From Gemmatimonadota bacterium (GTDB lineage: Bacteria > Gemmatimonadota > Gemmatimonadetes > Longimicrobiales > Gaopeijiaceae), in contig JBDHHQ010000018.1 of NCBI GenBank assembly GCA_039589315.1, positions 17,705 through 81,704 of the forward strand: a DNA stretch of 64,000 nucleotides, given 5' to 3'. The notes beneath the pieces are model-generated. The model ran no database searches. It had not been told where the DNA came from and was given only the letters and a program-made list of their open reading frames with translations. Positions 24,207-44,989 of this stretch are shown here, in pieces. Each line of letters begins with the position of its first letter. The first letter of the stretch is position 1. Position numbers and translations under genes: made by a program.

Positions 24207-24322
24207 ATCCCGGCCACGACGTCGGGACCGGGTCATCGACGATCCCGGCCACAGCGTCAGGACCCGGTCCCCGAAACATCCCGGCTACGGCGTCAGGAGC
24301 CGGCCGGCGACGTATCCCGGCT
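24207..24322. repeat. ~36 bp degenerate tandem repeat spanning the GH57 stop codon
   Basis: ATCCCGGCY at 24207, 24242, 24278 and 24314; CGTCRGGA recurs in the first three units. Confidence 0.7.
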
Positions 24323-26167
24323 GGGCGCGGGAAGGGTCAGGGAGGCCCGCCCCAGGCGCGCCGGCCACCGTGGCGTCACGGACACGCCCTGCTCGATCGG
24401 CTCGAAGCCGTCGGGGCACTTCGATATCGTGACGATGGGATACGTCCAGGTCTCGGTGGGGGGCGTCAGCTCGACCGGAGCCGGGCGGCCCAACGACAGC
24501 TCCGGAGCGAACCAGGCGTCGGCTGGGAAGGCGCCAGGATCCCAGCGCCACGCGATCTCTACCCCGCCGTCCGCGTCCACGCGAATCGTCTTTCGAACCC
24601 GCGGCCCTTCGTGAGCCTCGAACGACCACGTCAGGGTGCCCCCCTCCATCTCGGGTCCGGACGATCGAGCGGGTGGCCAGCTCCAGACGGGGGTGGCGTC
24701 GCCCTCCCGATAGGTGCCCAGGTCCAGGTCGCCACCGAGGACCCGGTCGACGACGAGGGTGCGGGGCTCCGGGTCCGCCGCCGGGAGTCGGGTCAGGGTC
24801 GCCATCGCTTCGGTGTCGTGGATCGACGGCGCGGAGTCCGGGACTGCCTGCGCGACCCCATCGCCGCCCTCGCGGGACCGACTCACGGCTTCCTCGTGGT
24901 AGGCCTCCCTGCGCCGCGTGAGCACGTCGGTCAGATCGGGCGCTGTGCCGAAGTGGATCAGCTCGGTGATGGTTCCGCCCCCCAACGGGCTCACCCAGGC
25001 CGAAAACCGGTCACTGTGGACCCACCACTCGAGCGCACCGTCACCGTCGAGATCCGCTCGCTCCCACGCGAGGCCCTGCCCCCGGCGGAGCACGGCCTCG
25101 GCCGCGGCCAATTCCCGGCGAACGCCCTCCCTGAGGTGCTTCATGTAGAGCCCGCCGAAGACACCGTGCCAGTACGCGTCGTTGCATTGGGCGCGGCCCA
25201 CGGCCCGGCGCGCTTCGTGGGGATCCCCGGCGGCGCGGCACAGCCGGCTCACGGACAGCATCCGCTTGTGCAAGCGGTTCGCCTCCGAGTAGCGCGTCAG
25301 GAAGTTTTTCCAGTTTCCGCCCGACCACTCCTCCATTTCCGGATAGGAGCCGACCGGCAGGTACACCGGTCCCCTTGCCGGGAGCTCGGCACGCGCCTGC
25401 GCGGGCGTGACCAGGCGGATCGACCCGTCGTCCCGCAACCCGTCCAGGACGTCGCCGAAGGACTCCAGCCACCCCTGCTCGTAGAGCCAGGGGCGGGTGC
25501 GAGGCCAGCCGCCGAACTTCTCGCCGTCGTCGCCGAAGAGAGCCAGTGGCTCGCCCGCGGCGTGCCGACGGCGTAGCTCTTCGCCGATCTCGGCGGCCGG
25601 CCGAAAGGGAATCAGGTACCGGAGCTGCTCGTCGATGGCCAGAAGGTCCACGTAACGGCCTTCCGACTCGGTGCGGAGGGGCCCCAGCAGATCCCGAGGG
25701 GCCGCGCCGGCCCTGAGGGCGAGGTGGTCGTCCACCAGGACGTACTCCACGCCCGCCGCCGCCAGGTCACGTACCAGCCCGGGCTCCCACACCCGCTCCG
25801 TCAGCCAGATGCCCGCCGGCGTGACTCCGAACCGGCGCTCCAGCCTCTCCCGCGTCCACGCCAGCTGGGTCCGGCGGTCTTCCGCGGGCAGCGCCACCAG
25901 GATGGGCTCATACCACCCGGCGCCCAGGAGCTCCACGCGGCCGTCGGCCACCAGGGTCCCGATGCGGTCCAAGAGCGCCGTGTCGTGCGCCTCCATCCAC
26001 TCCACCAGCGGACCCGAGACGTGGAGGCCGATGGGTAGCACCTCCCGGTCCTCCAGGAAGTCCAGAAACGGCCGGTAGACGTCGGCGGCGTGCTCCCGGA
26101 AGACATGGTCGAAGTTCCCCACGGGCTGGTGGACGTGGAGGACGAAACAGAAGCGCAGCGGCGTCAC
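24293..26167 (-). CDS. GH57 alpha-amylase/4-alpha-glucanotransferase
   Basis: H.HQPVGNF, Y.PFL, WLTERVWEP (nucleophile Glu), DDGEKFG, QCNDAYWHGVFGGLY; GTGA overlap. Confidence 0.9.
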   Translation of the reverse strand: MTPLRFCFVLHVHQPVGNFDHVFREHAADVYRPFLDFLEDREVLPIGLHVSGPLVEWMEAHDTALLDRIGTLVADGRVELLGAGWYEPILVALPAEDRRTQLAWTRERLERRFGVTPAGIWLTERVWEPGLVRDLAAAGVEYVLVDDHLALRAGAAPRDLLGPLRTESEGRYVDLLAIDEQLRYLIPFRPAAEIGEELRRRHAAGEPLALFGDDGEKFGGWPRTRPWLYEQGWLESFGDVLDGLRDDGSIRLVTPAQARAELPARGPVYLPVGSYPEMEEWSGGNWKNFLTRYSEANRLHKRMLSVSRLCRAAGDPHEARRAVGRAQCNDAYWHGVFGGLYMKHLREGVRRELAAAEAVLRRGQGLAWERADLDGDGALEWWVHSDRFSAWVSPLGGGTITELIHFGTAPDLTDVLTRRREAYHEEAVSRSREGGDGVAQAVPDSAPSIHDTEAMATLTRLPAADPEPRTLVVDRVLGGDLDLGTYREGDATPVWSWPPARSSGPEMEGGTLTWSFEAHEGPRVRKTIRVDADGGVEIAWRWDPGAFPADAWFAPELSLGRPAPVELTPPTETWTYPIVTISKCPDGFEPIEQGVSVTPRWPARLGRASLTLPAPSRDTSPAGS

Positions 26168-28257
26168 GGCGCTTCCGTGGCAAAGCCCAACCGACGACGC
26201 AGGCCCTGGATCACCGAGTCGGAGGGGTCCCGCCCATCCACGCGCTCGCGATCGCCCAGCAGTCGCCACAGGCGCGTCTCCGCGTCGTAGGGGACTCCCT
26301 CGTCGAGGGCCTCCAATGCGTCCAGGATCCGCTCGAGCCGGGCCCCCTCGGCTCCATCCGCGGACGGACCGGAAGGCGCCGGGCCTGGGCGTTCTTCGAG
26401 GACGGCGATCGCCTGATTCAGGGATTGGTGCAAGCGGTGAATCTGCACCGCCCGTGGGCCGGTGTGGGTGAATGAGCCATCCGTATCCGGGGAGAGCCCC
26501 TGGGCCGACAGCGCCAGCGCACCGGCCAAGCGCTCCTGCACGGCAACGGGGAGATCGGTCCAGCGGATCACCCGGGAGCCGGCCTCCGTGGGCATCGTGA
26601 CCCGGGCCTCGAGCGTCGTCGGCCCGGCGCCCACCACCTCCACCACCCCCTTCCACGACCGGCCCGTGGGCCCGTGCAACACCGACGCCTCGCCCGACGC
26701 CACCGAGGCGGTGTAGGCGCCCCACCGCTGCACCGCACGCCCCCCCAGCCTCCGGAACACCTGGGCAGCGGCCGCCACGGTGAGCGGAACCGGCACGGCG
26801 GGCGCGACCGCCGTGACATACAGCTGGCCGGCCGTGTCCACCTCGGCGTCGTTGCTGGCGGCTTTCTCGAGGCGGGTGACCAGGCCGTCCTCGAGTCGCC
26901 CAGCCCCATCTCCGTACAGGTCGATGGCCCGGGCCGCGTAGGTCAGGACCTGACGCGCCTCGATGCCCGCCACGTCGTCGAAGAACCAGGCGCACGAGGT
27001 GAACAGTCTCAGGGCGTTGCGCTCCATCTCCAGCATCTCGACGACATGGCGGCGCTCCTCGCCCGTGAGCTCCCGGGCGGACCACCGCTCCAGGAACGGC
27101 TGGAGGGCCGCCTCACGGTCCGGAGCGAGCGTGCCGACGTACCCATCCCGCGCGGACCACGGATCCGTCAACAACGGTCGGGTCTCGCGCTCATACCGGC
27201 GGTGCAGCTCGTTGGCCAGCCACGTCAGGGCGTGCCGCAGCGGGCCCCGCCAGGACTGGTCGCTCGCCGTTTCGGGAGACGCCTTGCAGCCACAGTCGGA
27301 TCGCCAGCGCTCGACGCCGTGGGCGCAGCTCCACGCCGTCGGGGCCACCAGCTCGACCTCTTCCCGGGGCTCATGGCGAGCGAGGAACGACGCGAAGCTC
27401 TCCACCACCACATCGTCCCGTGCGCGCAGGCGCTCCAGCGCAGTAGCCAGGGCCATCTCGCCGAAGCGGTGGTGGTGGCCGAACGTCTCGCCGTCGGTGG
27501 CCATGGAGCGCAGCAGGCGCGCCGGGGCGCCCTTCTTCTTCTCCCCCTCCGGAGGCGTGGCCAAGCGGTCCGCCCACGCGGCGCCGTCCTTCAGCAGGTG
27601 ACCGAACGCCACGTCGTGGGCCACGCCCCCGTCGTACACGAAGACAGCGATGTCCCGCCCGCTCGGGGTGACGTACCGACCGGGCAGCCCACCCGCCGGC
27701 ACGGTCCGCACCTGGTGAGGAGCGAGGACGGTGAAGCGGATACCCTCGGCGGCGAGGACGTCGAGCGTCTGGGCGTCGACTGCCGTCTCCGGCAGCCACA
27801 TACCCTCCGGGTCTCGACCGAAGCGACGACGAAAGTCGGCGATGCCCCAGCGGACCTCGGTCACGCGGTCCCGGGCGTCGGAGAGCGGCAGGATGGGATG
27901 GTGGTACGCCATCGCCATGGCGTTGCCATGCCCGTCGAGGCGCCGGCAGCTCTCCAGGTCCGCCTCCAACACCGCGGCGTAGGTGTCAGGCGCTTCGCGC
28001 TCGAGCCAGCTCAGGAGCGTCGGTCCGAAGTCGAAGCTCAACCACTCGAGGGCGTTGACGATACCGCGGATGTGCCCATCTCGGTCGAGGATGCGGCTCG
28101 CCACGACGGCTCTGTAGCACTCGTGCTCGACCCGCTCGTTCCAGTCGTGGTACGGGGCAGCCGCCGGCTGGTGGGGGACCTCTTCCAGCCACGGATCTTC
28201 ACGGGGCGGCTGATAGAAGTGCCCGTGAATGACGACGGAGAGGAGTTCCTTGCGCAA
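26164..28257 (-). CDS. GH57 family glycoside hydrolase (DUF3536-type)
   Basis: IHGHFYQPPRE.PW, WNER...ECY, WLPETA, TDGETFGHH, WSCAHGVERW, FTSCAWFFDD; TTG start assumed. Confidence 0.88.
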   Translation of the reverse strand: MRKELLSVVIHGHFYQPPREDPWLEEVPHQPAAAPYHDWNERVEHECYRAVVASRILDRDGHIRGIVNALEWLSFDFGPTLLSWLEREAPDTYAAVLEADLESCRRLDGHGNAMAMAYHHPILPLSDARDRVTEVRWGIADFRRRFGRDPEGMWLPETAVDAQTLDVLAAEGIRFTVLAPHQVRTVPAGGLPGRYVTPSGRDIAVFVYDGGVAHDVAFGHLLKDGAAWADRLATPPEGEKKKGAPARLLRSMATDGETFGHHHRFGEMALATALERLRARDDVVVESFASFLARHEPREEVELVAPTAWSCAHGVERWRSDCGCKASPETASDQSWRGPLRHALTWLANELHRRYERETRPLLTDPWSARDGYVGTLAPDREAALQPFLERWSARELTGEERRHVVEMLEMERNALRLFTSCAWFFDDVAGIEARQVLTYAARAIDLYGDGAGRLEDGLVTRLEKAASNDAEVDTAGQLYVTAVAPAVPVPLTVAAAAQVFRRLGGRAVQRWGAYTASVASGEASVLHGPTGRSWKGVVEVVGAGPTTLEARVTMPTEAGSRVIRWTDLPVAVQERLAGALALSAQGLSPDTDGSFTHTGPRAVQIHRLHQSLNQAIAVLEERPGPAPSGPSADGAEGARLERILDALEALDEGVPYDAETRLWRLLGDRERVDGRDPSDSVIQGLRRRLGFATEAP

Positions 28258-28268
28258 GCGTGGACCGC

Positions 28269-29717
28269 TCAAGCCGCCCGGTGCGCGGCCAACGCCTTGG
28301 CGTACACGTCCAGGTAGGCCTGTGCCGGCCGTTCCCAGCCGAAGTCCCGGCTCATGGCCTCGCGCATGTGGGTCTCCCACGCCTCCCGATCCGGATAGAG
28401 GGCGATGGCCCGTCGGATGGCCCTCTCCAGGGCCGTTGAGGTGAACTCGTCGAAGACGAAGCCGGTGACCTGGTCGTCGACGGTGTCGGAAAGCCCTCCC
28501 ACTCGTCGGACGACCGGGAGCGCACCATAGCGTTGCGCCCGCATCTGGGTCAGGCCGCAGGGCTCGTATTGGGACGGCATGAGCAGGCCGTCGGCACCGG
28601 CAAGCAGCCTGTGCTCGCGACGCTCCGTGAAATCGAAGCGCACGGTCACCCGATGCGGCATCTGGCGTGCCGCCTCCGCGAGCGCGTGCTGATACCCGGC
28701 CTCACCCTCGCCCACGAACACGAACTGGGCCTCCGGAATCCGAGAGAGCAGGCCGTCCCCCACGATGAGGTCGAAGCCCTTCTGCTTCACGAGGCGGGCA
28801 GTCATGCCGAAGAGCGGGATGTCGTCGCGCACGGGCAGACCGCAGGCGGCCTGCAGGTCAGCCTTGCACGCCCACTTCCCGGCCAGCTCCTCCCTTGAGT
28901 AGGTCTGCGGCAGATCGGGGTCCGTTTCGGGATTCCAGATGTCGAGATCGATCCCGTTCAGAATCCCCACCAAGCGGTCCCCCAGGGCGATGAACGAGTC
29001 GTGCAGGCCGAACCCGCCTGCGGGCGTGCGGAGCTCGTGGGCGTGGGTCGGGCTCACCGTGCCCACGTAGTCCGAGTACGCCAGCGCCCCCTTGAGCCAG
29101 TTGACCTGGCCGTAGTATTCCATGAGGCTCCAGTGAAAGAGCTCATTGGGGAGCCCCAGCTCGTCCAGGACGTCGGGTCCGAACAGACCCTGATAGCCGG
29201 CGTTGTGGACCGACAGGATCCTGGCGATCCGTCCGTAGACGTCCTGATCGGCCGCCAGCGTCGTCTCGAGGAGAATGGGCGCCAGCGCGGTGTGCCAGTC
29301 GTGGGCGTGGAGCACGACCGGCTCCTCCACCAGATCCGGCAGCGCCTGGAGCGCCGCTTTCGCGAAGAAGGCGAACCGGATGTGGTTGTCCGGATAGTCG
29401 CCCCCGCCCTCTCCGTAGAGGCCGTCCCGATCGAACAGCTCGGGCTGGTCGATGAAGATCACCCGGGGACCGGGAGGCGGGTCGCCGAGCTGGTACAGGC
29501 GAGCGCTTCCGGCCCACCGTCCCACCGATACGGCGAAGGGCTCGCCCAGAGGCACGAGCCCCGGCGTGTTCTGCCGTACCACGCGGTACAGGGGCATGAT
29601 GGCCGTGGTTGGGAAACCCGACTTGGCCTGGAAGGTGGCGATCCCTCGCACGGCTTCGGCGAGGCCGCCGGACCGGGCAAAGGGCCAGTACTCGGCCACG
29701 AGGTGGACGATGTTCAT
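28269..29717 (-). CDS. glgA: Glycogen/starch synthase (GT5)
   Basis: E..PFARSGGLA, HAHDWH, HNAGYQG, GILNGID, RL..QKG, MPS.YEPCGLTQM; AGGAG RBS. Confidence 0.93.
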   Translation of the reverse strand: MNIVHLVAEYWPFARSGGLAEAVRGIATFQAKSGFPTTAIMPLYRVVRQNTPGLVPLGEPFAVSVGRWAGSARLYQLGDPPPGPRVIFIDQPELFDRDGLYGEGGGDYPDNHIRFAFFAKAALQALPDLVEEPVVLHAHDWHTALAPILLETTLAADQDVYGRIARILSVHNAGYQGLFGPDVLDELGLPNELFHWSLMEYYGQVNWLKGALAYSDYVGTVSPTHAHELRTPAGGFGLHDSFIALGDRLVGILNGIDLDIWNPETDPDLPQTYSREELAGKWACKADLQAACGLPVRDDIPLFGMTARLVKQKGFDLIVGDGLLSRIPEAQFVFVGEGEAGYQHALAEAARQMPHRVTVRFDFTERREHRLLAGADGLLMPSQYEPCGLTQMRAQRYGALPVVRRVGGLSDTVDDQVTGFVFDEFTSTALERAIRRAIALYPDREAWETHMREAMSRDFGWERPAQAYLDVYAKALAAHRAA

Positions 29718-29911: not shown

Positions 29912-32185
29912 ATGAAGGTCGATCTGGTCGATTCGCTGCACGCCATCGCCGACGGACGCAACGCGACGCCCTTCGACGTGCTGGGCATGCACCCCACCGA
30001 CGACGTGGTGGACCGTGGCATGACGATCCGGGCCTGGCTCCCCGAAGCCTCCACCGCGGAGGTGCTCTGGAAGGGGCGTTCCGCGCCCATGAGCCGGGTG
30101 CACCCGAAGGGCGTCTACGAGGTCGTCGTGCCAGAGCCCGAACCCGTGACCTACCGCCTACGCGTGGATGGCGGCGCACCGTTCGAGGATCCGTATCGCT
30201 TCTCTCCGGTCTTCGACGACGATGAGCTGGCGCCGATCCGGGAGGTGGACGGCCGCCCGCACCGCGTGCTCGGCGCCCACGTCATGGAGCATGAAGGCGT
30301 CTCGGGAACGGTCTTCGCCGTGTGGGCCCCGGGCGCGAGGGCGGTGAGCCTGGTCGGGGACTTCAACGGGTGGCGCGCCGGGCGGCATCCCATGCGGGCC
30401 CGGGCCTCCACCGGGGTGTGGGAGCTGTTCGTCCCCGACCTCGCCGCCGGAGAGCTGTACAAATACCGCATCCTCAGCCACGTCGAGGGGAAGGTGCTTC
30501 TGAAGACCGATCCCTACGCCCGTTCGATGCAGCTGCGGCCGGAGACGGCGTCGGTCGTGGTGGCGCCGAGCACCCATGTCTGGACGGACGGGCCATGGAC
30601 CGCAGAGCGGGCCGAACGTCAGGCGGACGGACGGCCCATATCCGTCTACGAGGTCCACCTGGGCTCGTGGAAACGAGAGCCGGGTGCGAGGCCCCGAGAC
30701 GGCGCGCCGGGTTGGCAGGGCTACCGGGCGCTGGCGGCCGAGCTCATCCCGTACGTGAAGCGCCTCGGCTTCACGCACCTGGAGCTGCTGCCCGTTACGG
30801 AGCATCCCTACGACGCCTCCTGGGGCTATCAGACTGTCGGTTACTTCGCCCCAACGGCGCGCTACGGCACGCCCGACGACCTCCGCTACTTCGTGGACGA
30901 GGCGCACCGGGCCGGTCTCGGCGTGATCCTGGACTGGGTGCCGGCCCACTTTCCTCGCGACGCTCACGGCCTGGGCGTGTTCGACGGCACGCACCTCTAC
31001 GAGCACGCCGACCCGAGGAAGGGCGTCCATCCGGACTGGGGCACCTACATCTTCAACTACGCCCGGCCGGAGGTGACCGCGTTCTTGATATCGAGCGCGC
31101 TGTACTGGATCGAGGAGTTCCACATCGACGGGCTGCGCCTCGACGCCGTCGCGTCCATGCTCTACCTCGACTACTCCCGGGACGAGGGACAATGGGTGCC
31201 CAACCAGTACGGTGGTCGGGAGAACCTCGAGGCGAGCCGGTTCCTTCGTCAACTCAACGAGACGGTGCACCGAGAGCACCCTGGCGTCCTGGTAATGGCC
31301 GAGGAATCCACTGCCTGGCCGGGCGTCACGCACCCCGTCACAGCAGGCGGACTGGGCTTCGACGTGAAGTGGAACATGGGTTGGATGCACGACACGCTCG
31401 AGGTCATTCAATCGGATCCGCTGTTCCGGAAGGGGGTGTACGACAAGCTCACCTTTGGCATCACCTACGCGTTCTCCGAGCGCTTCCTGCTGGCGTTCTC
31501 CCATGACGAGGTCGTGCACCTCAAGGGCTCGATGCTCACCAAGATGCCCGGGCAGGTGCTGGACCAGTTCGCCAACCTGCGTCTGCTCTACGGCTACATG
31601 TGGGCCCACCCTGGCAAGAAGCTGCTGTTCATGGGAGCGGAGCTTGCGGTGTGGCAGGAGTGGGACGTGGAGGGTGAGCTCGACTGGGCCGTGGCCAAGG
31701 AGCCTCTCCACGCCGGGATCCAGCGCTGGATCACCGAGCTGAACCACTTCTACGCCCGGGAGCCCGCCCTCCATGAGAGTGACTGGGACGGGAGGGGCTT
31801 CGAGTGGCTCGACTGCCACGACCAGGCTCGGACGACCTTGTCGTTCCTGCGCTGGTCCGGGGAGTGGAAGGACCACGTGGCGGTTGCCTGCAACTTCACG
31901 CCAGTCACGTGGGAGGGGTACCGGCTCGCGGTTCCCCACGCGGGCTCGTACGAGGTGGTGCTGAGCTCGGACGATCGGCGCTTCGGGGGCAGCGGGTCGG
32001 TGGAGCACACGGTCTTCGGCACCGTCGAGGGAGAGCTCTTCGGCCGCGACCAGTTCGTGGAGCTGACGCTGCCGCCCCTGTCGATGCTCTTCCTCAAGCA
32101 GGTGGCGCCGCCGGTCGACGCCAGGGGCTCCAGCAAGCCGTCCAGGGCGGGCCGCGCCAGGAAGGGCGGCGACACGGGCGGCTGA
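29912..32185 (+). CDS. glgB: 1,4-alpha-glucan branching enzyme (GH13)
   Basis: YEVHLGSW, SWGYQ, LDWVPAHF, GLRLDAVASM, AEES, SHDEVVH, HPGKKLLFMG. Confidence 0.96.
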   Translation: MKVDLVDSLHAIADGRNATPFDVLGMHPTDDVVDRGMTIRAWLPEASTAEVLWKGRSAPMSRVHPKGVYEVVVPEPEPVTYRLRVDGGAPFEDPYRFSPVFDDDELAPIREVDGRPHRVLGAHVMEHEGVSGTVFAVWAPGARAVSLVGDFNGWRAGRHPMRARASTGVWELFVPDLAAGELYKYRILSHVEGKVLLKTDPYARSMQLRPETASVVVAPSTHVWTDGPWTAERAERQADGRPISVYEVHLGSWKREPGARPRDGAPGWQGYRALAAELIPYVKRLGFTHLELLPVTEHPYDASWGYQTVGYFAPTARYGTPDDLRYFVDEAHRAGLGVILDWVPAHFPRDAHGLGVFDGTHLYEHADPRKGVHPDWGTYIFNYARPEVTAFLISSALYWIEEFHIDGLRLDAVASMLYLDYSRDEGQWVPNQYGGRENLEASRFLRQLNETVHREHPGVLVMAEESTAWPGVTHPVTAGGLGFDVKWNMGWMHDTLEVIQSDPLFRKGVYDKLTFGITYAFSERFLLAFSHDEVVHLKGSMLTKMPGQVLDQFANLRLLYGYMWAHPGKKLLFMGAELAVWQEWDVEGELDWAVAKEPLHAGIQRWITELNHFYAREPALHESDWDGRGFEWLDCHDQARTTLSFLRWSGEWKDHVAVACNFTPVTWEGYRLAVPHAGSYEVVLSSDDRRFGGSGSVEHTVFGTVEGELFGRDQFVELTLPPLSMLFLKQVAPPVDARGSSKPSRAGRARKGGDTGG

Positions 32186-32188
32186 GCT

Positions 32189-32297: not shown

Positions 32298-33515
32298 CTA
32301 CCCCGCCACCACCTGGAACCGGCTCGCCACCTTCCCGGCCATGTCGATCGTGGTCTGCAGGTCGGGATGGCGGACGACGAGCATGCCGTCGCCCACCAGG
32401 ACCTTGCGCCAGTCGCGCCGCGGCGCGCCGATGGGATTGAGGTCCATGGCACACACGTGCTGCCCGATCTCCGACAGTAGAGGCTCGAGACCCTCGTACC
32501 TCTGGATGTTCCCTCTTCCGCGAGCTCTCTTGAAGATCCACGCGGCGTTGAACTTGCGCTCCGCCGGCTGACTGAAGCTGCCGTGGACCACGGCCTCCGC
32601 CCAACCGGTGTACGTGTCGATGTCCGACGCGAAGTTGATGAGATCGACGAGGTACGCACCGGGCGGGCGACCCCCGATCTCGCCAAACACCGCCTCCCCC
32701 TCCTGCGTCCGGTACCACTCCATGTGGGTGTATCCGGTGCGGAACCCCAGCGCCTGGAGAACGGCCTCTCCCATCTTCTTGCCCGCGGCCAGCTCGGGCG
32801 TATCCGGATCCCGGTAGACCAGGGTGATGGGACTCACCCACTCGTTCTCCTTCATGACCAGCGCGCGGGGGATGTACGTAGCGATGGAGTAGTGCTGGAT
32901 CCGCCCGTCGATGCAGATCGTCTCGTAGGTCATGTCGTCGCCCTCGACGAACTCCTCGACGCTGATCTCGTTCACGGACCTCAGAGCGGGCAGCACGCCG
33001 TCGAGCTGTTCCCGGGACTCGATGCGATAGGTGTGCTCGGACCCGGCCCCGGCGATGGGCTTGACGATCACGGGATAGCCGATGTTCTCCGCAGCCTCCA
33101 CGACCTGGGCGGCGGTGGTCGCGCTGTAGTGGTGGGGCGTGCGGATCCCAGCCTGGTCCAAGACGCGCTTCATGATCTCCTTGTCCCGAAACGGGATCGT
33201 CTCCTGCACCGTCATCCCGGCCAAGCCGAGCATCTCCCGGATCCGGGCGGCCAACACCATGTACGGCTCCCACAGGCACTCGACGCGGTGGATCGTCACC
33301 CTCCGGGCGAGGTCGGCGACTTGCCCGAGGATGGCGTCCTCGTCCAGGAAGGAGCGCACCTGGATGTGCGCCTTCACCGCCGAACGTGCCGGCTCTTCCA
33401 GGGCCGTTTCCGGCTGGTCTCCGAGCCCGATCACGTTGGCGCCCACGGCAGCGAGACCGCGGGTGAAGTAGCGCATCTCCCGAGGGAAGCTGGGAGAGAT
33501 CATCAACACGTTCAT
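32298..33515 (-). CDS. ATP-grasp ligase A (L-amino-acid-ligase-like)
   Basis: FRDKEIMK, VIVKPIAGAGS, EEFVEG, THMEWY, EIGGRPPG; GAGGA RBS. Confidence 0.88.
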   Translation of the reverse strand: MNVLMISPSFPREMRYFTRGLAAVGANVIGLGDQPETALEEPARSAVKAHIQVRSFLDEDAILGQVADLARRVTIHRVECLWEPYMVLAARIREMLGLAGMTVQETIPFRDKEIMKRVLDQAGIRTPHHYSATTAAQVVEAAENIGYPVIVKPIAGAGSEHTYRIESREQLDGVLPALRSVNEISVEEFVEGDDMTYETICIDGRIQHYSIATYIPRALVMKENEWVSPITLVYRDPDTPELAAGKKMGEAVLQALGFRTGYTHMEWYRTQEGEAVFGEIGGRPPGAYLVDLINFASDIDTYTGWAEAVVHGSFSQPAERKFNAAWIFKRARGRGNIQRYEGLEPLLSEIGQHVCAMDLNPIGAPRRDWRKVLVGDGMLVVRHPDLQTTIDMAGKVASRFQVVAG

Positions 33516-34803: not shown

Positions 34804-35003
34804 TCGGAGTGCCGGCAAGCACGGGGGAAGCCGGCGTCTGTCGGGTGATCTCGGTCCGGCGGAGGCCGGAGAAGAGTAAGGAAGGTAAACCCGCACAGGC
34901 CAGGGGGGTACCTCGGCCGTCCCGTTTCGCTATCTTTGGCGCCGTTTCGCGGCCTATCGGCATCGGTCGCGCCAGTCCACCCCGACGACGGACACATCGA
35001 CTC

Positions 35004-36227
35004 ATGCACGCGGTCTTCGTCGAGCCGGCCTTCCCGTCGAACCAGAAGGAATTCGTTCGCGCTCTGCACCAGGCCGGTGCCCAGGTCACGGCCGTCGGCG
35101 AGCGCCCCAGGGAGGCGCTGGACGACGACCTCGAGCGCTGGCTACTCCACTACGAACAGGTCCCCTCGGTCGTCGACGCCCAAGACCTCGCACGGGTGGT
35201 GGGCGCCATTCACGCCCGCAAGCCGGTGGGGCGGTTGGAGACGACGGTCGAGGCCCACATCATGGCTGCAGCCCAGGTCCGCGAAGCCCTGGGCATACCC
35301 GGCACGTCCGTGCGCACGGCTTTCCTTTGCCGGGACAAGCCGGCCATGAAGGAGGTCCTGCGAGAGGGTGGTGTAGCGTGTGCTCAATCCATGGGCAGCG
35401 GCGACTCCGAGGCCATCCGGTCCTTCGCCGAGAGCGTCGGCTATCCATTGGTCCTGAAACCCAGGGCGGCCGCGGGAGCCTCGGGCACGTATCGGGTGGA
35501 CGACCGGGAGCAACTGGACGGCGTCTTGACTCAGTTGGGCGTGGGTCACGGAGGCCAGGTGGCCGTCGAGGAGTTCATCGAGGGTCACGAGGCCTTCTAC
35601 GACACGATCACCATCGGGGGTAGCGTCGCCCACGAGTTCATCACGCACTACTACCCGAACGTCCTCGAGGCCATGCGCACGCGCTGGATCTCGCCGCAGT
35701 TCATCACCACGAACCGCATCGAGTCCGCTCCAGACTACCAGGAGGTGCTGGAGCTGGGGCGCAAGGTCATCCGCGTGCTCGAGATCGACACCTCCGCGAC
35801 CCACATGGAGTGGTTCTTCGGGTCCAAGGGCCTGAAGTTCTCGGAGATCGGCTGTCGACCGCCCGGCGTCCGGGCGTGGGACCTCTACGCCGCAGCCAAC
35901 GAGATCGACATCTACTACGAATGGGCCATGGCCGTGCTCTGGGGCCGGACGTCGCGCAAGGCGTCTCGGGCGTATTCGGCCGGAATCGTCGCGCTGCGGC
36001 CGGACCAAGACGGCCGGATTCGTGGCTACGACGGCCTCGATGAGGTTCGCCGGCGCTTCGGCGAGTGGATTCTCGACCACCACCTTCCCCCTGAGGGGAC
36101 ACCCACCCAGCCCGTGGAGGGCGGGTACATGGCCAACGCCTGGATCCGCATGCGCCATCCCGACTACGACGCGCTACGCTCCATGCTCGATCAGGTCGGC
36201 GAAATCGTGCAGGTGAGGGCAGGGTGA
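35004..36227 (+). CDS. ATP-grasp ligase C (paralog of A and B)
   Basis: CRDKPAMK, LVLKPRAAAGA, EEFIEG, THMEWF, EIGCRPPG. Confidence 0.88.
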   Translation: MHAVFVEPAFPSNQKEFVRALHQAGAQVTAVGERPREALDDDLERWLLHYEQVPSVVDAQDLARVVGAIHARKPVGRLETTVEAHIMAAAQVREALGIPGTSVRTAFLCRDKPAMKEVLREGGVACAQSMGSGDSEAIRSFAESVGYPLVLKPRAAAGASGTYRVDDREQLDGVLTQLGVGHGGQVAVEEFIEGHEAFYDTITIGGSVAHEFITHYYPNVLEAMRTRWISPQFITTNRIESAPDYQEVLELGRKVIRVLEIDTSATHMEWFFGSKGLKFSEIGCRPPGVRAWDLYAAANEIDIYYEWAMAVLWGRTSRKASRAYSAGIVALRPDQDGRIRGYDGLDEVRRRFGEWILDHHLPPEGTPTQPVEGGYMANAWIRMRHPDYDALRSMLDQVGEIVQVRAG

Positions 36228-37159
36228 GCAACGGTCCTGCCCGGGTCGTTCTGCTGGGGTCCCACTCGGGCGTCCCGACGGGGGGGCCCTCCTTGGACGA
36301 GCTCGGCCTCGACGGACCCGTGGCCACGGTACGAGCTGGCTGGCAGGAGTGGGAAGGGGAGCCCCATTCGTTGACCCTGGCAGCGGACGGCTGGAATCTC
36401 CGCCTGTGGGAGCGGGCGGAGCGGATCTGGGCCGAGGACCCCGAGCTCACCCAGGCGCACCACGCGATGCAGGAGAAGATCCGCCTCCTCCGGCGCATCT
36501 ACAACGTCCGCCTCTCCCACCTCGCCGACGCCTACCTCGACATCGACGCCCGGGAGGGGCCGGCAGACGTGCTGGACCCGGAGCGTCACGCCGCGTTCGA
36601 GGCCGTGCGGGAGCTGGACCGACGCCAGGTGCAGCGGGTGGCCGGCATCCGCCGGGAGTTCGAGGAGCGCTACCGCCCCGGAGACCGACACGCCGTCGCG
36701 CGCGAACGCGCCGAGGTGGCGCGTATCCTGACCGACACGCCGGTGGTGGCGGTCGACGGCGGCCACGTCGCCATCCTCCTCAACCGGCTGCGTCTGTTCG
36801 GCCTGGCCGAGCTGCTGGCCGGCCGTGCGGTGGTCGCTTGCTCGGGCGGAGCCATGGTTCTTTCGGAGCGCCTCGTCCTCTTCCACGACTCACCTCCCTG
36901 GGGGCCCGGGCACGCCGAGGTGGCGGAAGCCGGCCTCGGCCTCTTCCCTGACGTCGTCGTCCTGCCCCACGCCGAGACGCGCCTGCGACTGGACGATCCC
37001 ACCCGGGTGAGCCGGCTCGCCCGCCGCGTGGCTCCGGCACCGTGTGTCCTCCTCGACCGGGACGCCCGGCTCGAGTGGGACGGCCGGCGCTGGACGGTTG
37101 CCCGGGCTCGGCATCTCACCGCTTCAGGGACAGTGACACTCTGGGAGGTGGCGGCGTGA
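36224..37159 (+). CDS. Peptidase S51-like (cyanophycinase/PepE; class I GATase fold) protein
   Basis: GGHVAILLNRL, CSGGAM nucleophile elbow, GLGL.P...LPH; GTGA overlap. Confidence 0.7.
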   Translation: MSNGPARVVLLGSHSGVPTGGPSLDELGLDGPVATVRAGWQEWEGEPHSLTLAADGWNLRLWERAERIWAEDPELTQAHHAMQEKIRLLRRIYNVRLSHLADAYLDIDAREGPADVLDPERHAAFEAVRELDRRQVQRVAGIRREFEERYRPGDRHAVARERAEVARILTDTPVVAVDGGHVAILLNRLRLFGLAELLAGRAVVACSGGAMVLSERLVLFHDSPPWGPGHAEVAEAGLGLFPDVVVLPHAETRLRLDDPTRVSRLARRVAPAPCVLLDRDARLEWDGRRWTVARARHLTASGTVTLWEVAA

Positions 37160-38343
37160 GGGGCATGCCCAAGGATCGGGAACGCGCCTCCGGGAGGGTC
37201 GATCACCACGGGTTGGCAATCGCCGAGCTGGTGGATGCCTCGCCGCCGGACGCGGACGCCGTGAGCCGATTCATCGAGGAACACGAGTTCCCCATCGTCG
37301 AGGGAACGCGTTGTACGTTCGTGTTCCAGGGCAAAGCCCGGGAGGTGCGACTTCGGCACTGGATCTTCGGACTGGCCACCGCCGAGCGCTTCCATCGCGT
37401 ACCGGGCACGGATCTCTGGTACCACGTCATGGAGATCCCCGACGGCTCCAGGGTCGAGTACAAGCTCGAGGTGGAAGACGGTCGCCCGGCCCACTGGATC
37501 ACGGATCCGCTGAACCCTCACCTGGCCCACGACCCCTTCGGCGCCAACTCCGTGTGCTACGGGCAGGGATACGAGGTGCCGGCGTGGTCCCGCGAGGATC
37601 CCCTGGCGGCACCGGGCAGCCTGGAGGAGCGGGTGTTTCACAGCGACGCCCTGGACTCGCCGAGGCGGGTGACGCTGTTCAGGCCAGCCCGGTTCAAGGA
37701 GACCCGGCGCTACCCCCTGCTCGTGGTGCACGACGGTGGTGACTACCTCCGGTTCGCCAACCTGGAGACGGTCCTGAACAACCTGATCCACCGCCTCGAG
37801 GTTCCGGGCGTGGTGGCCGCGTTGACGCACCCGGCCGACCGGATGGAGCAGTACCGGGACTCCGAGAGTCACGCCCGCTTCCTGACCGAGGAGCTGGTGC
37901 CTATGCTCGAGGAGGAGCTGCCCCTCCTGGGGACCCCGGCCGGACGCTGTCTGATGGGTGCGAGCCTGGGCGCCGTGGCCTGCCTCTCCACGGCCATCCG
38001 GCACCCCGGCTTCTACGGCCGACTCCTGCTCCAGTCGGGCTCGTTCGCGTTCTCGGACATCGGCAACCACGACCGTGGCCCGGCTTTCGACCCCATCGCT
38101 GACATGGTGAACCGGTACCGGAGCCAGCCGTTCGCCGTGAGCGACCGCGTGTTCGTGAGCTGCGGCATGTACGAGTCGCTCATCTACGAGAACCGGTCCC
38201 TCGTCCCCCTCCTGCGCGAGACCGGAATGGACATCCGCTACGTCGAGGCGAGGGACGGGCACAATTGGGAGAACTGGCGGGACCGGCTGCGCGAGGGTCT
38301 GTCGTTCCTGTTCCCCGGACCCCTCTGGTGGGTCTACGATTGA
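37156..38343 (+). CDS. Fes/enterochelin-esterase-like alpha/beta hydrolase with N-terminal E-set (CBM48-like) domain
   Basis: N-terminal RV.GTDLW...EYKL....DPLNP; YPLLVVHDG, GASLG, GHNWENW; GGAGGTG RBS. Confidence 0.82.
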   Translation: MRGMPKDRERASGRVDHHGLAIAELVDASPPDADAVSRFIEEHEFPIVEGTRCTFVFQGKAREVRLRHWIFGLATAERFHRVPGTDLWYHVMEIPDGSRVEYKLEVEDGRPAHWITDPLNPHLAHDPFGANSVCYGQGYEVPAWSREDPLAAPGSLEERVFHSDALDSPRRVTLFRPARFKETRRYPLLVVHDGGDYLRFANLETVLNNLIHRLEVPGVVAALTHPADRMEQYRDSESHARFLTEELVPMLEEELPLLGTPAGRCLMGASLGAVACLSTAIRHPGFYGRLLLQSGSFAFSDIGNHDRGPAFDPIADMVNRYRSQPFAVSDRVFVSCGMYESLIYENRSLVPLLRETGMDIRYVEARDGHNWENWRDRLREGLSFLFPGPLWWVYD

Positions 38344-38404: not shown

Positions 38405-39646
38405 ATGGCTGACGTAACCCGAAAGATCGGTCTGTCACTGGGCGCCGACATCTGCTGGCCCATCGCCTACACCGAGGTGCTCCGGCGCTTGGACCTGGCG
38501 ATCCCCATCGGAGACGATACGATCAGGCTCGACGTGGAGCGGATGACGATCGAGCCGTTCGACCTCCGGGAGCACACGCCGTACGACCTGGTGATCGACC
38601 GGCTGACGCACTGGTATCACCCGCGCCGGGAGTGGATCAAGAAGGCCGTGCTGCTCGACGACGTCTACGTGTTCAACAACCCCTGGTCCGTGCAGTCGAT
38701 GGAGAAGCTCAGCTCGTACTGCGCCATGATCAGGCTGGGGCTTCCCATTCCGGAGACGTGGCTCATTCCGCCGAAAACGTACTTCGATCACTCCCAGGAG
38801 CTGCAGACCACGTTAGAGCGCTACGCACGGTATTTCGACCTGCCCGCAATCGGCGGCGAGGTTGGCTACCCGCTGTTCATGAAGCCCTACGACGGCGGCG
38901 GCTGGCGGGCGGTGTCCAGGATCGCCAACGCCGAGGAGCTCGAGACGGCGTACGAGGAGAGTGGCGATGCCGTGATGCACCTACAGGAAGGCATCGAGCC
39001 GTTCGACCGCTTCGTCCGGTGCATCGGCCTCGGGCCCCAGACCCGCATCGTGCTCTACGACATCGATGCCCCAATCCACGACCGATACACGATGGAGCGG
39101 GGCTTCCTCGAGGACGAGGAGCACAAGCTCATCCGCGACATGACCCTGGTGATCAACGCCTTCTTCGCCTGGGACTTCAACTCGTGCGAGCTGATCCACC
39201 GCGACGGCGTGTGGCACGCCATCGACTTTGCCAATCCCTGCCCGGACTCGCAGGTGACGTCGCTGCACTATCACTTCCCGTGGCTGATCAAGGCCAATAT
39301 CCGATGGTCCGTATACGCTGCCGCCACCGGTCGCAGAATGAAGCCCATGGGCTGGGAGCGCTTCTTCAACGCCGTCGACGACGACATGACCTTGCGGGAG
39401 CGTCTGGACTCCCTCCTGCACCTCGTGCACGAGCGCTACGAGACCGAGCGCTTCGAGGCGTTCTGCCACCGTCACCTGCCCCACCTGGACGAGGTGACGC
39501 ACGAGTTCTTCGGTACGGAGGTGGCGCACGACGCAGTGCGGCAGAAGGTGGCGGCCCTGTTCCCCGAGCACGAAGTGGAGGAGTTCACGGAGCTGATGTG
39601 GAGTCGCATCCAGACCTGGCGGGACGTTGAAGGGGCCTCGGCATGA
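38405..39646 (+). CDS. ATP-grasp ligase D (RimK/GshB-like, distinct subfamily)
   Basis: NNPW....K, GLPIPET..IP.K, YPLFMKPYDGGGW, HLQE, IDFANPCPD; GAGGA RBS. Confidence 0.8.
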   Translation: MADVTRKIGLSLGADICWPIAYTEVLRRLDLAIPIGDDTIRLDVERMTIEPFDLREHTPYDLVIDRLTHWYHPRREWIKKAVLLDDVYVFNNPWSVQSMEKLSSYCAMIRLGLPIPETWLIPPKTYFDHSQELQTTLERYARYFDLPAIGGEVGYPLFMKPYDGGGWRAVSRIANAEELETAYEESGDAVMHLQEGIEPFDRFVRCIGLGPQTRIVLYDIDAPIHDRYTMERGFLEDEEHKLIRDMTLVINAFFAWDFNSCELIHRDGVWHAIDFANPCPDSQVTSLHYHFPWLIKANIRWSVYAAATGRRMKPMGWERFFNAVDDDMTLRERLDSLLHLVHERYETERFEAFCHRHLPHLDEVTHEFFGTEVAHDAVRQKVAALFPEHEVEEFTELMWSRIQTWRDVEGASA

Positions 39647-40371
39647 AGCGGACCGAAACCTGGCATTCTTCCCGGCTCGAACGGGAGATCACGGCCGTGC
39701 GGTGGGGGGAGACGGGGATCCCGGTGCTGATCTTCCCCACGGCGGGTGGCGACGCAGAGGAGATCGAGCGGTTCCTGATCATCCAGACATTGGCGCCGTT
39801 CCTCGACGCGGGGCGCATCAAGGTCTACTCGTGCGACTCGCTCGCGGGACAGGCCATGTTGGCCGGGGAGGGATCTCCCCAGCACCAGATGGCCATGATT
39901 AACCGCTACCAGCAGTACATCGGCGAGGAGCTCGTGCCCATGATCCGCGCCGATTGTCGGAGCGAGGACATCGGAGTCGTCGCCGCAGGCGCCTCCATCG
40001 GGGCGTTCACGGCCCTGGCGGCCCTCTGCAGATACCCGGAGGCCTTCACCCACGCCATGTGCCTGAGCGGCACGTTCGACCTGTCGCGGTTCGTGGATGC
40101 CCCTATCACTGGCGACTTCTACGTTTCGTCGCCGGTCCACTACCTCCCCGAGCTCCACGGTCCCGGCCTGGAGGCGATCCAGCGGCGGTTCATCCTGCTG
40201 GCGTCGGGTGAGGGCCGCGCGGAGGATATCGGCGAGTCGTGGCGGGTCGCCAACGTGCTCGGGCAGAAGGGCATCCCGAACAGGGTAGACTCGTGGGGAC
40301 CGGACTGGCACCACGACTGGCCGACCTGGCGGAACATGCTCCACAAGTACCTGGACGAGCTGGCGCCCTGA
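39643..40371 (+). CDS. Putative esterase (alpha/beta hydrolase)
   Basis: G.PVLIFPT.GG, GASIG, LSG.FD, WG.DW.HDWPTW; ATGA overlap. Confidence 0.82.
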   Translation: MKRTETWHSSRLEREITAVRWGETGIPVLIFPTAGGDAEEIERFLIIQTLAPFLDAGRIKVYSCDSLAGQAMLAGEGSPQHQMAMINRYQQYIGEELVPMIRADCRSEDIGVVAAGASIGAFTALAALCRYPEAFTHAMCLSGTFDLSRFVDAPITGDFYVSSPVHYLPELHGPGLEAIQRRFILLASGEGRAEDIGESWRVANVLGQKGIPNRVDSWGPDWHHDWPTWRNMLHKYLDELAP

Positions 40372-40475
40372 AGCCACGCTGGTGCGGGCGCTCCCGCCCT
40401 GGCCTGATCAACCCCAAGGTGTCGTGCCGGCGCTCCCGCCCCGACCGACCCCGTCGGGCGAACCTCCCGGCGTGG

Positions 40476-42641: not shown

Positions 42642-43036
42642 CGAGTCCGGCGGGACGGTTTCGTGATGGAGGGAGCGGCGCCGGTGCCGGCGCCGTACGT
42701 CCGAGAGTGCGGAGCGGTATAATCTGTCACGAAGTGTCCTCGAGTTGAAGCGGCAGCGCGCTTCGACCGCAGGCCCGCGGACCGCGCCCGGTGGGAGCTC
42801 CAGACCCGGCGTCGTCCTCCGGTCAGCGGCCGCTCCGCTTCCACCGTCTTCGCCCCTTCCCAAATCTCCGATTCTCGATAGCATACGGATGACGGAATAG
42901 ACTCGCCGCCGCCCGACGGGCGCGGCGGGGTCGGAGGATCCTTCGTGACGCGCTCGTGACGTCCCGCTGCGAAAGCGTCATGCAAGCCTCGGTATCATTC
43001 GGATAGACGACAACGCCATTTGGAATGAGGAGTTTC

Positions 43037-43363
43037 ATGAGCATCCGTGAGCAGCTTACCGCGTTCATCGAAGACCACACCGACGGATGGGACCACGCCC
43101 AATGGATCGGGTTCCTGCAGACCCTGGACCAGCAGGGCATCGACGTAAGCGACCCGGACGATCTGGGCGTGAAGCTGGAGAGCGCCCGGCTGGGATGGGA
43201 GCTTCGGCGCCGTGCGGTCCCGGGGCTGGGCCCCAAGCGCATCGATGCCGTGGTGGGCCGCTTCGGGTCTCTGTGGAGCCTCAAGCAGGCGACACCGGAC
43301 GAGATCGCCGAGATCCCGACGATCCACAAAGGCCTGGCGGAGAAGCTGAGCGACGCTCTCTAG
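43037..43363 (+). CDS. Small protein with C-terminal (HhH)2 DNA-binding-like domain
   Basis: VPGLGPKR...RFGSL..LKQAT.DEIAEIP.I...LAEK resembles the UvrC C-terminus; GAGGAG RBS. Confidence 0.75.
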   Translation: MSIREQLTAFIEDHTDGWDHAQWIGFLQTLDQQGIDVSDPDDLGVKLESARLGWELRRRAVPGLGPKRIDAVVGRFGSLWSLKQATPDEIAEIPTIHKGLAEKLSDAL

Positions 43364-43390
43364 TCCACCTGTTTCCGACCCGCATGGCCT

Positions 43391-44989
43391 TCACTCCATT
43401 GAGGCCACGGAGGGTTCGAACAGGGACCGGGGGACGCCGTGGGTGTCCCGATTCGCCCCCGTCTCCCGATCCAGGATGGCCACCGTCGTCCGATAGAGGC
43501 GATCCGCCTCCTCCCGGCTGTTCCCGATGGACGTCACCCCCACTTTCCCGTACTGGGAAAGGGCGCCGATCATGAAGAATATGACGCCCTTGAGTGTCGA
43601 GTGGTTGAAGTGGATCCCGTGAGCCACCGTCAGATCGAAGAGGTCCTCGGGCAGCAGGCCACGATACGCCGGTGACTTGAGGTTGTCGGTGGCGTAGTAG
43701 TACTTGGCCTGGCCGTCCTCGGCCGTATACAGGCCGCTTTCCCTGTCGAACCGGCCACGGGCCAGGAACTCCAGGGCCATGAACGGCGGCGTGGTCCCGC
43801 CCATGCGCAGATTGATCTCCACGGCGTAGCTCTTCCAGGGCCGACCCTCGGATCTGGTGACGAGGAAGTCCACGCCGAAGCGCCCGATGACCCCGTTCCC
43901 CGCGAGCACTTGCCCGATGCGCTCCGCGTCGGCGCAGATCAGGGCGCGATAGTCGGCGTGGGCCGGAAACCGACATCCCAGGTAGACTTGTCCGGTGCTG
44001 CCCCCGAGGACCTGATCGTGGGTCGAGAGCACCGAGAGCTCGCCGTGGGGGTGGATGCGGAGCTGGACGCTCGGAGACACCACCTCGTCGTCCTCGATCC
44101 ACTCCTCGACGATGCCTGCCATCTCGCCGAGCTTGCCGAAGAAGCGATCCGGTGTCTCTCGTCCCCCCGGCCACTCGAGCTCCTCCAGACCTGCGCTCAG
44201 CGCGGCTCGCCGCTCCGGTCCCCCTACCGGAAGCTCGGCCGGGAACCGGTACACGCCGTTGCCCTCTCCGGCGAAGCTTTCGTTGAGCTTGAGGACCGCC
44301 TTGCGGAGGGTCGGACGCCCCGTGACCAGGTCGTCGAGGGCGTCCACCACCTGATCCCGCGTGCGCAGATCGTTGACGCCCCGCGCGAGCGACACGCCTG
44401 CCTGTGCGAACACCTTGCGCGACCCCGATTTGGTGCCCATCCAGAGCAGTTCGGGATCGACCGAGTTCAAGGGAATGCCGAGCTCCACCGCCAGCCGGCG
44501 CTCCAGAATCGTGGAATTGTAGACGGTGAGGTAGGCCCGCTCGGGTGGCCCCATCCAGGACCGGATCCTCTCGATCACCCGGGGCCGGTCCAGGATCTTC
44601 GCCGTGAGGGGCCTGGGGCTCGCATCGTAGAGGCAGAGCACCAGCAGACGGCTCAGGGCCCGGCCCAGGGGCACACCGGGGAGATGCTGCAGATAGTACT
44701 CGAGCGTTTCGGCATGGATGGGTTGGCTGGTGACGTAGACGGCACGGCCCGCGGGGTCGGCCAACCGGATCAGCGTGAAGAGGAGCCGTTCCTCGTAGAA
44801 GGCGGCACCCTCGACCTTCGCCAGCTCCTCCTGGTTGACGCTGACCGAGGGCACCACGACCGACGTGTGCGGCCAGGCCGGGTTGCTCCGCAGCCTTTCC
44901 GAGATGACCGGCAGGTGGGCCTTGAGCTCCTGAAAGCGGGCCAACTCCTCCGGCGAGCCCAGCTCACCGTACGGGGAGTCTGTGATCAT
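43391..44989 (-). CDS. PGM1-like ATP-grasp peptide ligase (ligase E)
   Basis: YEERLLF.L, GTKSGSR..F, LKLNESFAGEGN, SPSVQ, STHDQVLGG, GRFGVDF, EINLRMGGTT, ATDNL, GK.G.T.IG. Confidence 0.8.
   Translation of the reverse strand: MITDSPYGELGSPEELARFQELKAHLPVISERLRSNPAWPHTSVVVPSVSVNQEELAKVEGAAFYEERLLFTLIRLADPAGRAVYVTSQPIHAETLEYYLQHLPGVPLGRALSRLLVLCLYDASPRPLTAKILDRPRVIERIRSWMGPPERAYLTVYNSTILERRLAVELGIPLNSVDPELLWMGTKSGSRKVFAQAGVSLARGVNDLRTRDQVVDALDDLVTGRPTLRKAVLKLNESFAGEGNGVYRFPAELPVGGPERRAALSAGLEELEWPGGRETPDRFFGKLGEMAGIVEEWIEDDEVVSPSVQLRIHPHGELSVLSTHDQVLGGSTGQVYLGCRFPAHADYRALICADAERIGQVLAGNGVIGRFGVDFLVTRSEGRPWKSYAVEINLRMGGTTPPFMALEFLARGRFDRESGLYTAEDGQAKYYYATDNLKSPAYRGLLPEDLFDLTVAHGIHFNHSTLKGVIFFMIGALSQYGKVGVTSIGNSREEADRLYRTTVAILDRETGANRDTHGVPRSLFEPSVASME

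Follow-up and report, generated by a model that had tools for sequence, protein, structure and literature searches.

An ATP-grasp ligase and esterase module linked to alpha-glucan metabolism in many bacterial phyla points to a possible reversible decoration of glycogen or of a glycogen-derived compound

The stretch of DNA analysed here, hereafter called the window, comprises 64,000 nucleotides of a high-GC genome, and the named close homologues of its ligase AG4 are from Gemmatimonadota. Codon-bias gene calling and Pfam/NCBIfam scans placed a module of seven genes between the glycogen genes glgB and glgP, coding for three ATP-grasp ligases (AG1, AG2 and AG3), an S51-like protein, a serine esterase (Est1), a fourth ATP-grasp ligase (AG4) and a second serine esterase (Est2). 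The module is a real and widespread system depending on alpha-glucan metabolism, whether this runs through GlgA or through GlgE, and its recurring unit is AG4 with the two esterases, the remaining ligase and hydrolase genes being exchangeable accessories. The chemistry, which we infer, points to an undescribed way in which bacterial glycogen, or a compound derived from it, would be reversibly decorated. An earlier note on this DNA had described the ligases, the S51-like protein and the two esterases between glgB and glgP as a partly translationally coupled group, and all of these are present where it placed them; its proposal that these ligases and hydrolases form an uncharacterised system linked to alpha-glucan was upheld by an enrichment of glgA near related modules and by the finding of carriers only among genomes with GlgA or GlgE.

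Phylogenetic profiles were made for 300 other Gemmatimonadota genomes and 301 Actinomycetota genomes, taking absence as not found and, in the Gemmatimonadota, counting AG4 of either the long or the short type (see below). Among the Gemmatimonadota, AG4 was present in 89 genomes, the GT5-type glycogen synthase gene glgA in 178 and GlgE in 40. GT5 GlgA accompanied AG4 in 77 of the 89 carriers and the remaining 12 all had GlgE, against a background of 26 GlgE-containing genomes among the 122 without glgA, and AG4 was found in none of the 96 genomes without both GlgA and GlgE. Catalase, a neutral accessory gene and the one control gene used, had 6 of its 23 carriers among those 96 genomes, near the 32% expected, so the exclusion of AG4 from them is not simply genome streamlining. 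In the Actinomycetota AG4 was found in 40 genomes, 37 of them with GlgE (background 125/301) and the other 3 with GT5 GlgA. For the two phyla together, GlgA or GlgE was thus present in 129 of 129 AG4 carriers. One of the Actinomycetota (G412) contained all seven genes and GlgE, with no GT5 glgA detected. Since carriers with only GlgE exist, the link is to glucan metabolism and not to the GlgA protein, and GlgA as an obligatory protein partner was rejected. The counts include unpublished genomes, namely G156 (1 of the 12 GlgE-only carriers) and G318, G365, G405 and G437 (4 of the 40); without them the pattern holds (88/88 and 36/36).

The gene neighbourhood was analysed in the best 80 of at least 603 matching stretches found in GTDB genomes; many contigs were short, and 35 of the 80 loci were at least 20 kb in length. 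The loci were from Gemmatimonadota, Myxococcota, Pseudomonadota, Planctomycetota, Acidobacteriota, Eisenbacteria and Actinomycetota, and Atlas clusters extend the module to Chloroflexota and Vulcanimicrobiota; it recurs in at least eight phyla. The fetched flanks contained Est1 in 71 loci, Est2 in 70, S51 in 61, AG3 in 49 and AG1 and AG2 in 34 each, together with glgA (34 loci, within 10 kb), glgP (10 matches of two types), glgB (7), a GCS2-CBS ligase (16), a PGM1-like ligase (4) and GH57 (2). Among the 35 full-length loci glgA was present in 20; we estimate that by chance a one- or two-copy gene would be present in fewer than 1% of such neighbourhoods. In 21 loci, from five named phyla and one unassigned genome, glgA stood directly before AG3, eight times with overlapping stop and start codons. 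The linkage of homologous modules to alpha-glucan genes, which the earlier note had suggested checking, was therefore seen as a strong enrichment beside glgA. Because the order of the seven genes was also identical in 4 of 4 fetched Gemmatimonadota genomes with the long-type AG4, and the set recurs across phyla, the arrangement is not a product of chance.

These results bear on the explanation that the module is merely co-located or co-inherited with glycogen genes and has nothing to do with glucan. No glycogen gene was found within 10 kb in 15 of the 35 full-length loci, and kinship inflates the counts, both of which would fit such an explanation. It is nevertheless very improbable, as AG4 was missing from all 96 glucan-less genomes, where the control gene does occur, as the pattern repeats in Actinomycetota, and as overlapping glgA-AG3 junctions persist through many rearrangements.

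The glgA of the window (28269-29717, minus strand; TIGR02095 476 bits, cut-off 328) is the only GT5 glgA of its genome and belongs to a native Gemmatimonadota clade (tree support 100/99), and the module-linked glgA genes of other loci group apart from it (support 88/53 only). Judging from this tree, the module appears to be linked to glgA genes of two separate lineages.

AG4 (38405-39646, plus strand), the marker of the core, has no match in Pfam. Its structure model (pLDDT, the predicted per-residue confidence, 94.6) is that of an ATP-grasp enzyme of the RimK/LysX fold with a helical C-terminal extension. The closest fold was RimK (4iwx; Z 20.4, root-mean-square deviation 2.9, 265 residues aligned), followed by ArgX (Z 19.8), and the similarity to RimK, ArgX and LysX (Z 19-20) is accompanied by only about 15% identity. 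Residues K101, K160, E262, D274 and N277 are invariant in 81 of 81 aligned rows, and 6726 homologues were found among 8000 scored candidates. Est2 (39643-40371, plus strand; PF00756), a small serine esterase or transacylase, adjoins AG4 in 70 of the 80 loci and has Ser118, Glu194 and His224 in 69 of 69 aligned rows. A complex prediction for AG4 and Est2 gave a score of 0.00 in two runs, which has no weight for or against binding.

Est1 (37165-38343, plus strand) was modelled (pLDDT 92) as two domains, an immunoglobulin-like N-terminal domain resembling the carbohydrate-binding modules (CBM) CBM48 and CBM20 and an alpha/beta hydrolase of the CE1/Fes type with catalytic Ser and His (Ser267 and His366, 66/66). 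The whole fold is like that of Fes and of CBM48-CE1 esterases (template modelling score about 0.6-0.7, 16-22% identity), and the nearest solved relatives of the esterases accompanying AG4 include carbohydrate esterases. The best PDB match of the N-domain profile was the starch-binding domain of glucoamylase (CBM20, E 0.005). At the putative glucan site K100 is conserved in 66/66 and N117 in 65/66 members, W66 is Trp or Phe in 66/66 and W111 is Trp in 45/66; a Trp-Lys-Trp-Asn set forms the glucan-binding site of CBM20/CBM48. Enterochelin_N scores better than these families on the N-terminal domain, and its binding of glucan is no more than plausible.

The nearest folds to AG4, RimK, ArgX and LysX, all act on proteins, and the glgA genes to which AG3 is coupled form one broad group. 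AG4 and AG3 could accordingly be imagined to modify a protein of glycogen metabolism (GlgA, GlgB, GlgP or a granule protein) by RimK/LysX-like tailing, as a switch or a primer, with the hydrolases reversing the modification. We consider this unlikely; GlgB or GlgP may still be the target. The full module occurs in G412 with GlgE and no detected GT5 GlgA, the module of the window lies beside a different glgA lineage, and a search of 1920 small open reading frames (ORFs) close to module genes in the 80 loci gave no conserved gene for a carrier or precursor peptide, the ten largest recurrent small-ORF clusters resembling shadows of other genes, antisense or off-frame. P0274, an apparent fusion of GlgA and AG3, was rejected, as it contains out-of-frame stretches and looks like a frameshift artefact. 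A LysW-type system or a graspetide system of ribosomally made peptides modified after translation (RiPPs) was likewise rejected, no conserved small peptide gene being found near the module in the 80 loci.

AG4 and the two esterases are regarded as the core because the loci of a short variant, of Actinomycetota and of Gammaproteobacteria differ in the other genes. The short AG4 (about 320 amino acids, 30-36% identity) was present in 75 of the 300 Gemmatimonadota genomes, and the loci scanned contained Est2, often a further esterase of 230-284 amino acids, a circularly permuted ATP-grasp protein, a GCS2 ligase and a C26 hydrolase. In Actinomycetota AG4 and both esterases were found in 16 of 19 fetched loci, and AG1-3 with S51 in only one. 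Three Gammaproteobacteria have kept S51-Est1-AG4-Est2, with glgA on the same contig at a distance of about 14-26 kb; AG1-3 were not found in their genomes. The GCS2-CBS ligase occurs with the module in 16 loci (e.g. L081 224-2197), mostly directly 3' of Est2 in Myxococcota, and is joined by an AstE/AspA deacylase in four loci and by N-formylglutamate amidohydrolase in three. The module had been described in the earlier note as one unit; its genes do recur as a set, but the unit that recurs is AG4 with two esterases, AG1-3 and S51 being one of several accessory sets. A glpX gene for fructose-1,6-bisphosphatase was also seen near the three-gene core in five Actinomycetota loci (L181, L182, L183, L188 and L179), which may be simple synteny among kin.

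Of the accessory ligases, AG1 (32298-33515) and AG2 (33586-34803) are on the minus strand and AG3 (35004-36227) is on the plus strand. They are paralogues of 31-33% pairwise identity, AG1 and AG2 having Pfam ATP-grasp matches, and all three resemble L-amino-acid ligases. The best solved relatives of the AG3 profile were the L-amino-acid ligases RizA (E 1.5e-23), BacD and BL00235. The catalytic Lys/Glu/Glu/Arg set of ATP-grasp enzymes is invariant in the aligned rows of AG1 (32), AG2 (31) and AG3 (47), including K112, K152, E266, E279 and R283 of AG1 (32/32) and K114, K154, E270, E283 and R287 of AG2 (31/31), and the ATP- and metal-binding residues are kept. HME of AG3 aligned with HTE of BacD. 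The Glu of BacD that presumably binds the alpha-amino group of the substrate is Ser in AG3, and the same motif position is Ser in AG1 and Gln in AG2; the corresponding stretch of RizA is also without Glu.

A fusion search with AG3 gave nine longer proteins, of which four were read. Only P0273, a fusion of AG2 and AG1 known from this single sequence, looked clean; the AG3-esterase fusion P0276 was rejected as an artefact with out-of-frame stretches, and the longer form of P0271 was due to a spurious N-terminal extension. In genome G211 (L031 12737-15313) an integrase-type insertion breaks AG3 and the remaining module is intact.

The S51-like protein (36224-37159, plus strand), of the PepE/cyanophycinase type, falls just below the PF03575 cut-off in the window (23.7 bits, cut-off 23.9), whereas 46 of 60 family members match PF03575 at E<=0.01; among its Atlas neighbours PF03575 is found on 21-43% of members. 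The sole match of its profile among PDB sequences was PdxT (E 0.06). With the catalytic Ser and His positions putatively assigned from S51 motifs, Ser207 is present in 55 of 60 rows, His249 in 33 and another His, at position 221, in 58; the copy in the window has both Ser207 and His249. Because His249 is found in just 33 of 60 rows, the protein may in many lineages serve as an altered or non-catalytic partner, and it is not reliably the peptidase that the earlier note took it for.

Four ligases beside an S51-like protein might suggest a separate peptide or amide reserve polymer, an analogue of cyanophycin co-regulated or co-stored with glycogen and degraded by the S51-like protein and the esterases. 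GCS2 enzymes make and C26 enzymes cut gamma-glutamyl amides, and the GCS2/C26 or GCS2-CBS/deacylase genes of the other versions imply peptide or gamma-glutamyl chemistry. A free peptide store, however, needs no glucan synthase, yet every one of the 129 AG4 carriers has one; the constant hydrolases are esterases, S51 is absent from 18 of the 19 loci in Actinomycetota, its His is not well conserved, and a real CphA is encoded elsewhere in the genome of the window. Such a polymer is thus rather improbable, and of the two options offered originally, decoration of the glucan has come out the stronger and the peptide reserve the weaker.

We favour, at a little short of an even chance, the reading that an acyl or peptidyl ester is put on the alpha-glucan and taken off again by AG4 and the esterases, with exchangeable accessory ligases building the donor. 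It is favoured because the constant hydrolases are esterases, because Est1 has a CBM-like domain and because the system is indifferent to which synthase, GlgA or GlgE, is present. From the chemistry of its family, AG4 would turn a carboxylate into an acyl-phosphate using ATP; ATP-grasp enzymes are described as forming acyl-phosphates (PMC9486568) and some of them as making esters (PMC8939145). The acyl group would end as an ester on a hydroxyl of the glucan, either directly or via Est2, whose catalytic serine would then serve in a transacylase reaction. Est1, docked on the particle by its CBM-like domain, would remove the ester and so let phosphorylase and debranching proceed, a step analogous to the kinase/CBM-phosphatase pairs acting on starch phosphate. 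The donor, probably an amino-acid or peptide unit that is short and acidic, would be built and trimmed by the accessory set, which here would be AG1-3 and the S51-like protein and elsewhere the permuted ATP-grasp protein with the GCS2 gamma-glutamyl ligase and C26, or GCS2-CBS added to AG1-3 and S51. The likely purpose would be tuning the solubility, charge or turnover of the glucan store, or parking nitrogen on it.

A wider form of this proposal is that the glycogen of bacteria in many phyla carries base-labile amino-acid or peptide esters, put on by a widespread ATP-grasp writer and taken off by a CBM-esterase eraser, the granule being a regulated store of both carbon and nitrogen. Glycogen is usually extracted with hot alkali, and the esters would have been overlooked because of this. 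We hold the wider form only tentatively, as a possibility with the balance against it.

Several observations weigh against an ester on the glucan. The module is dispensable, because 115 of the 204 glucan-making Gemmatimonadota genomes are without AG4. Related genomes in the profile counts are not independent, and kinship inflates these counts, so that the Fisher values computed from them overstate the association. A maltosyl metabolite or a shared enzyme (GlgB or GlgP) could give the same co-occurrence as the polymer, and a glucan gene lay inside 20 kb in only 4 of the 19 fetched Actinomycetota loci. The solved ligases closest to AG3 and AG4 make amides, not esters. In the N-terminal domain of Est1 the matches are all weak, and the best is Enterochelin_N (65 of 65 members), ahead of CBM20 (38) and CBM48 (20); W111, one aromatic residue expected to bind glucan, is Trp in just 45 of 66; and the first esterase of the short variant (269-281 amino acids) is without the CBM-like domain.

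The last of these observations would also suit a module that makes or recycles a small sugar-amino-acid conjugate from glucan turnover, such as an acylated maltose, malto-oligosaccharide, trehalose or glucosyl-acid protectant, and leaves the polymer unmodified. Dependence on GlgA or GlgE is explained equally well in this way, 2 of 19 Actinomycetota loci have GH13 genes flanking the core, and enzymes of the L-amino-acid-ligase type use small molecules (PMC9486568). The polymer is indicated instead by the direct coupling of AG3 to glgA, which codes for the elongating enzyme, in 21 loci and by the CBM-like domain of Est1, and no transporter or trehalose gene was recurrent in the 80 loci. A soluble conjugate is an alternative to be reckoned with, although we think it unlikely.

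Within the window, the order of the genes by strand is GH57, GH57/DUF3536 and glgA (minus), glgB (plus), AG1 and AG2 (minus), AG3, S51-like, Est1, AG4 and Est2 (plus) and glgP (minus), followed by a small helix-hairpin-helix gene and a BesA/PGM1-like gene. Stop and start codons overlap at AG3/S51 (GTGA), AG4/Est2 (ATGA), glgA/GH57 (TTGA) and GH57/GH57 (GTGA). The module genes, glgA and glgB are single-copy in the assembly. The spacer between the divergent AG2 and AG3 (34804-35003) contains back-to-back TAnnnT-type boxes, AAGGTA and TATCTT, which recur in several related loci and, read by eye, are probably divergent -10 elements; sigma-70 and terminator scans gave nothing above chance level. 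AG4 had no match among plasmids.

The branching enzyme gene glgB (29912-32185, plus strand) was above the cut-offs of TIGR01515 and NF003811, and glgP (40476 to about 42641, minus strand, start uncertain) scored 748 bits with TIGR02094 (cut-off 192). On the other side of glgA, its stop codon overlaps a GH57/DUF3536 glucan enzyme gene (26164-28272, minus strand; PF12055, PF03065), which is followed by a GH57 gene of the 4-alpha-glucanotransferase/amylase type (24293-26167, minus strand; PF03065, PF09094, PF09095). The 930-amino-acid ORF of the latter is too long; a GTG overlapping the stop of the upstream gene is its likely start. In this genome, 95% complete, no gene scored as glgC above the cut-off. 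The window GlgA has the motif RSGGL in place of the KTGGL of most GlgA proteins, and the sugar-nucleotide donor of its clade may differ from ADP-glucose.

The helix-hairpin-helix protein (43037-43363, plus strand; PF14520) lies outside the module and was found in 0 of the 80 related loci. The BesA/PGM1-like ATP-grasp gene (43391-44989, minus strand), an occasional companion, is a homologue of BesA (structure 8yi6, E 4.6e-39) below the BesA equivalog score (NF042917 147 bits, cut-off 750). Its start is overlapped by the coupled upstream gene for an N-acetylglucosamine-kinase-like protein of the BadF family (44986 to about 45908, minus strand), which is split over two frames near 45620, by sequencing error or as a pseudogene, and ends a string of GH3, GH3-beta-lactamase-domain and sodium-symporter genes. 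The fifth ligase and the two GH57 genes, named in the earlier note as flanking the system, are present and are mostly local company (PGM1-like in 4 and GH57 in 2 of 80 loci). Just beyond the locus (18225-24217, minus strand) are genes for catalase, a pyrroloquinoline quinone dehydrogenase, cytochrome c and an amidohydrolase, with no link to the module seen. Elsewhere in the same genome are a stand-alone GCS2 and C26 pair (L131 8047-9956, on G000:C22), 70% and 41% identical to the short-variant counterparts, which may still serve the module, and, away from the module, a genuine cyanophycin synthetase with a second partial match (G000:C64 12260-16754).

The glycogen of bacteria is regarded as unmodified, and an ester-forming module, if the favoured reading is true, would bring a new level into carbon storage and provide a bacterial counterpart to starch phosphorylation and enzymes esterifying glucans in water. 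AG4 occurs in 30% of the sampled Gemmatimonadota and 13% of the sampled Actinomycetota genomes and was found only with a glucan synthase. Under the rival readings, too, it would belong to an unknown pathway branching from glycogen, the three-gene core of which is directly testable. No description of the module was found in the literature searched; a 2009 survey of amidoligases by Iyer and colleagues in Mol Biosyst, outside that search, may list the neighbourhood of the short variant. A 2024 review on the alpha-glucan enzymes of prokaryotes (PMC11046441) gave 0 matches to 'ATP-grasp', and 0 to 'esterase' or 'acylat' in 300,000 of its 445,374 characters.

The ligases were confirmed by hidden Markov model (HMM) scans to lie outside the known housekeeping families: no NCBIfam cut-off was reached by AG1-4, and Ddl, PurD, PurK, PurT, CarB and AccC were rejected (best score 86.5 bits against 625). 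L-amino-acid ligases (RizA, BacD, BL00235) are the best solved relatives of AG3 and share the ATP- and metal-binding residues of AG1-3, but the similarity is remote, and the module differs from them in having three paralogues together, a link to glucan genes and no antibiotic-cluster or exporter context. The protein amino-acid ligases RimK, LysX and ArgX share the fold of AG4, which is below their HMM cut-offs (TIGR00768 17.6 against 143.4, TIGR02144 27.2 against 275.6) and differs in its low identity, its 100-amino-acid helical tail and the lack of a LysW-like carrier among the genes found. The two-domain fold of Est1 is that of CBM48-CE1 carbohydrate esterases and the enterochelin esterase Fes, to which it is distantly related, but the module has no xylan or siderophore context.

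The cyanophycin system (CphA with CphB, family S51) resembles the module in having an ATP-grasp ligase beside an S51-family protein in a storage context. It differs in its fused synthetase of about 860-870 amino acids, joining ATP-grasp and Mur-ligase parts, which the module does not have, and the module core has esterases. The module was rejected as a cyanophycin system, AG1-3 being about 405 amino acids long and scoring 24.5-44.7 bits with TIGR02068 (cut-off 850), and the S51-like protein 17.1 with TIGR02069 (cut-off 126.6).

Bacterial carbohydrate polymers that carry acyl or aminoacyl esters, as proposed for the product of the module, include mycobacterial methylglucose lipopolysaccharide, succinylated periplasmic glucans and D-alanylated teichoic acid; these are made by coenzyme A-, carrier- or membrane-linked transferases without ATP-grasp ligases, and are not the glycogen store. 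In the phosphorylation of starch and glycogen, glucan kinases and phosphatases such as GWD, SEX4 and laforin carry CBMs. The proposed arrangement of a writer and a CBM-bearing eraser of a removable ester on a storage glucan is most like this reversible phosphorylation (PMC13666283). That system is eukaryotic, its ester is a phosphate and its enzymes are unrelated, whereas the module combines carboxylate-activating ligases with serine esterases.

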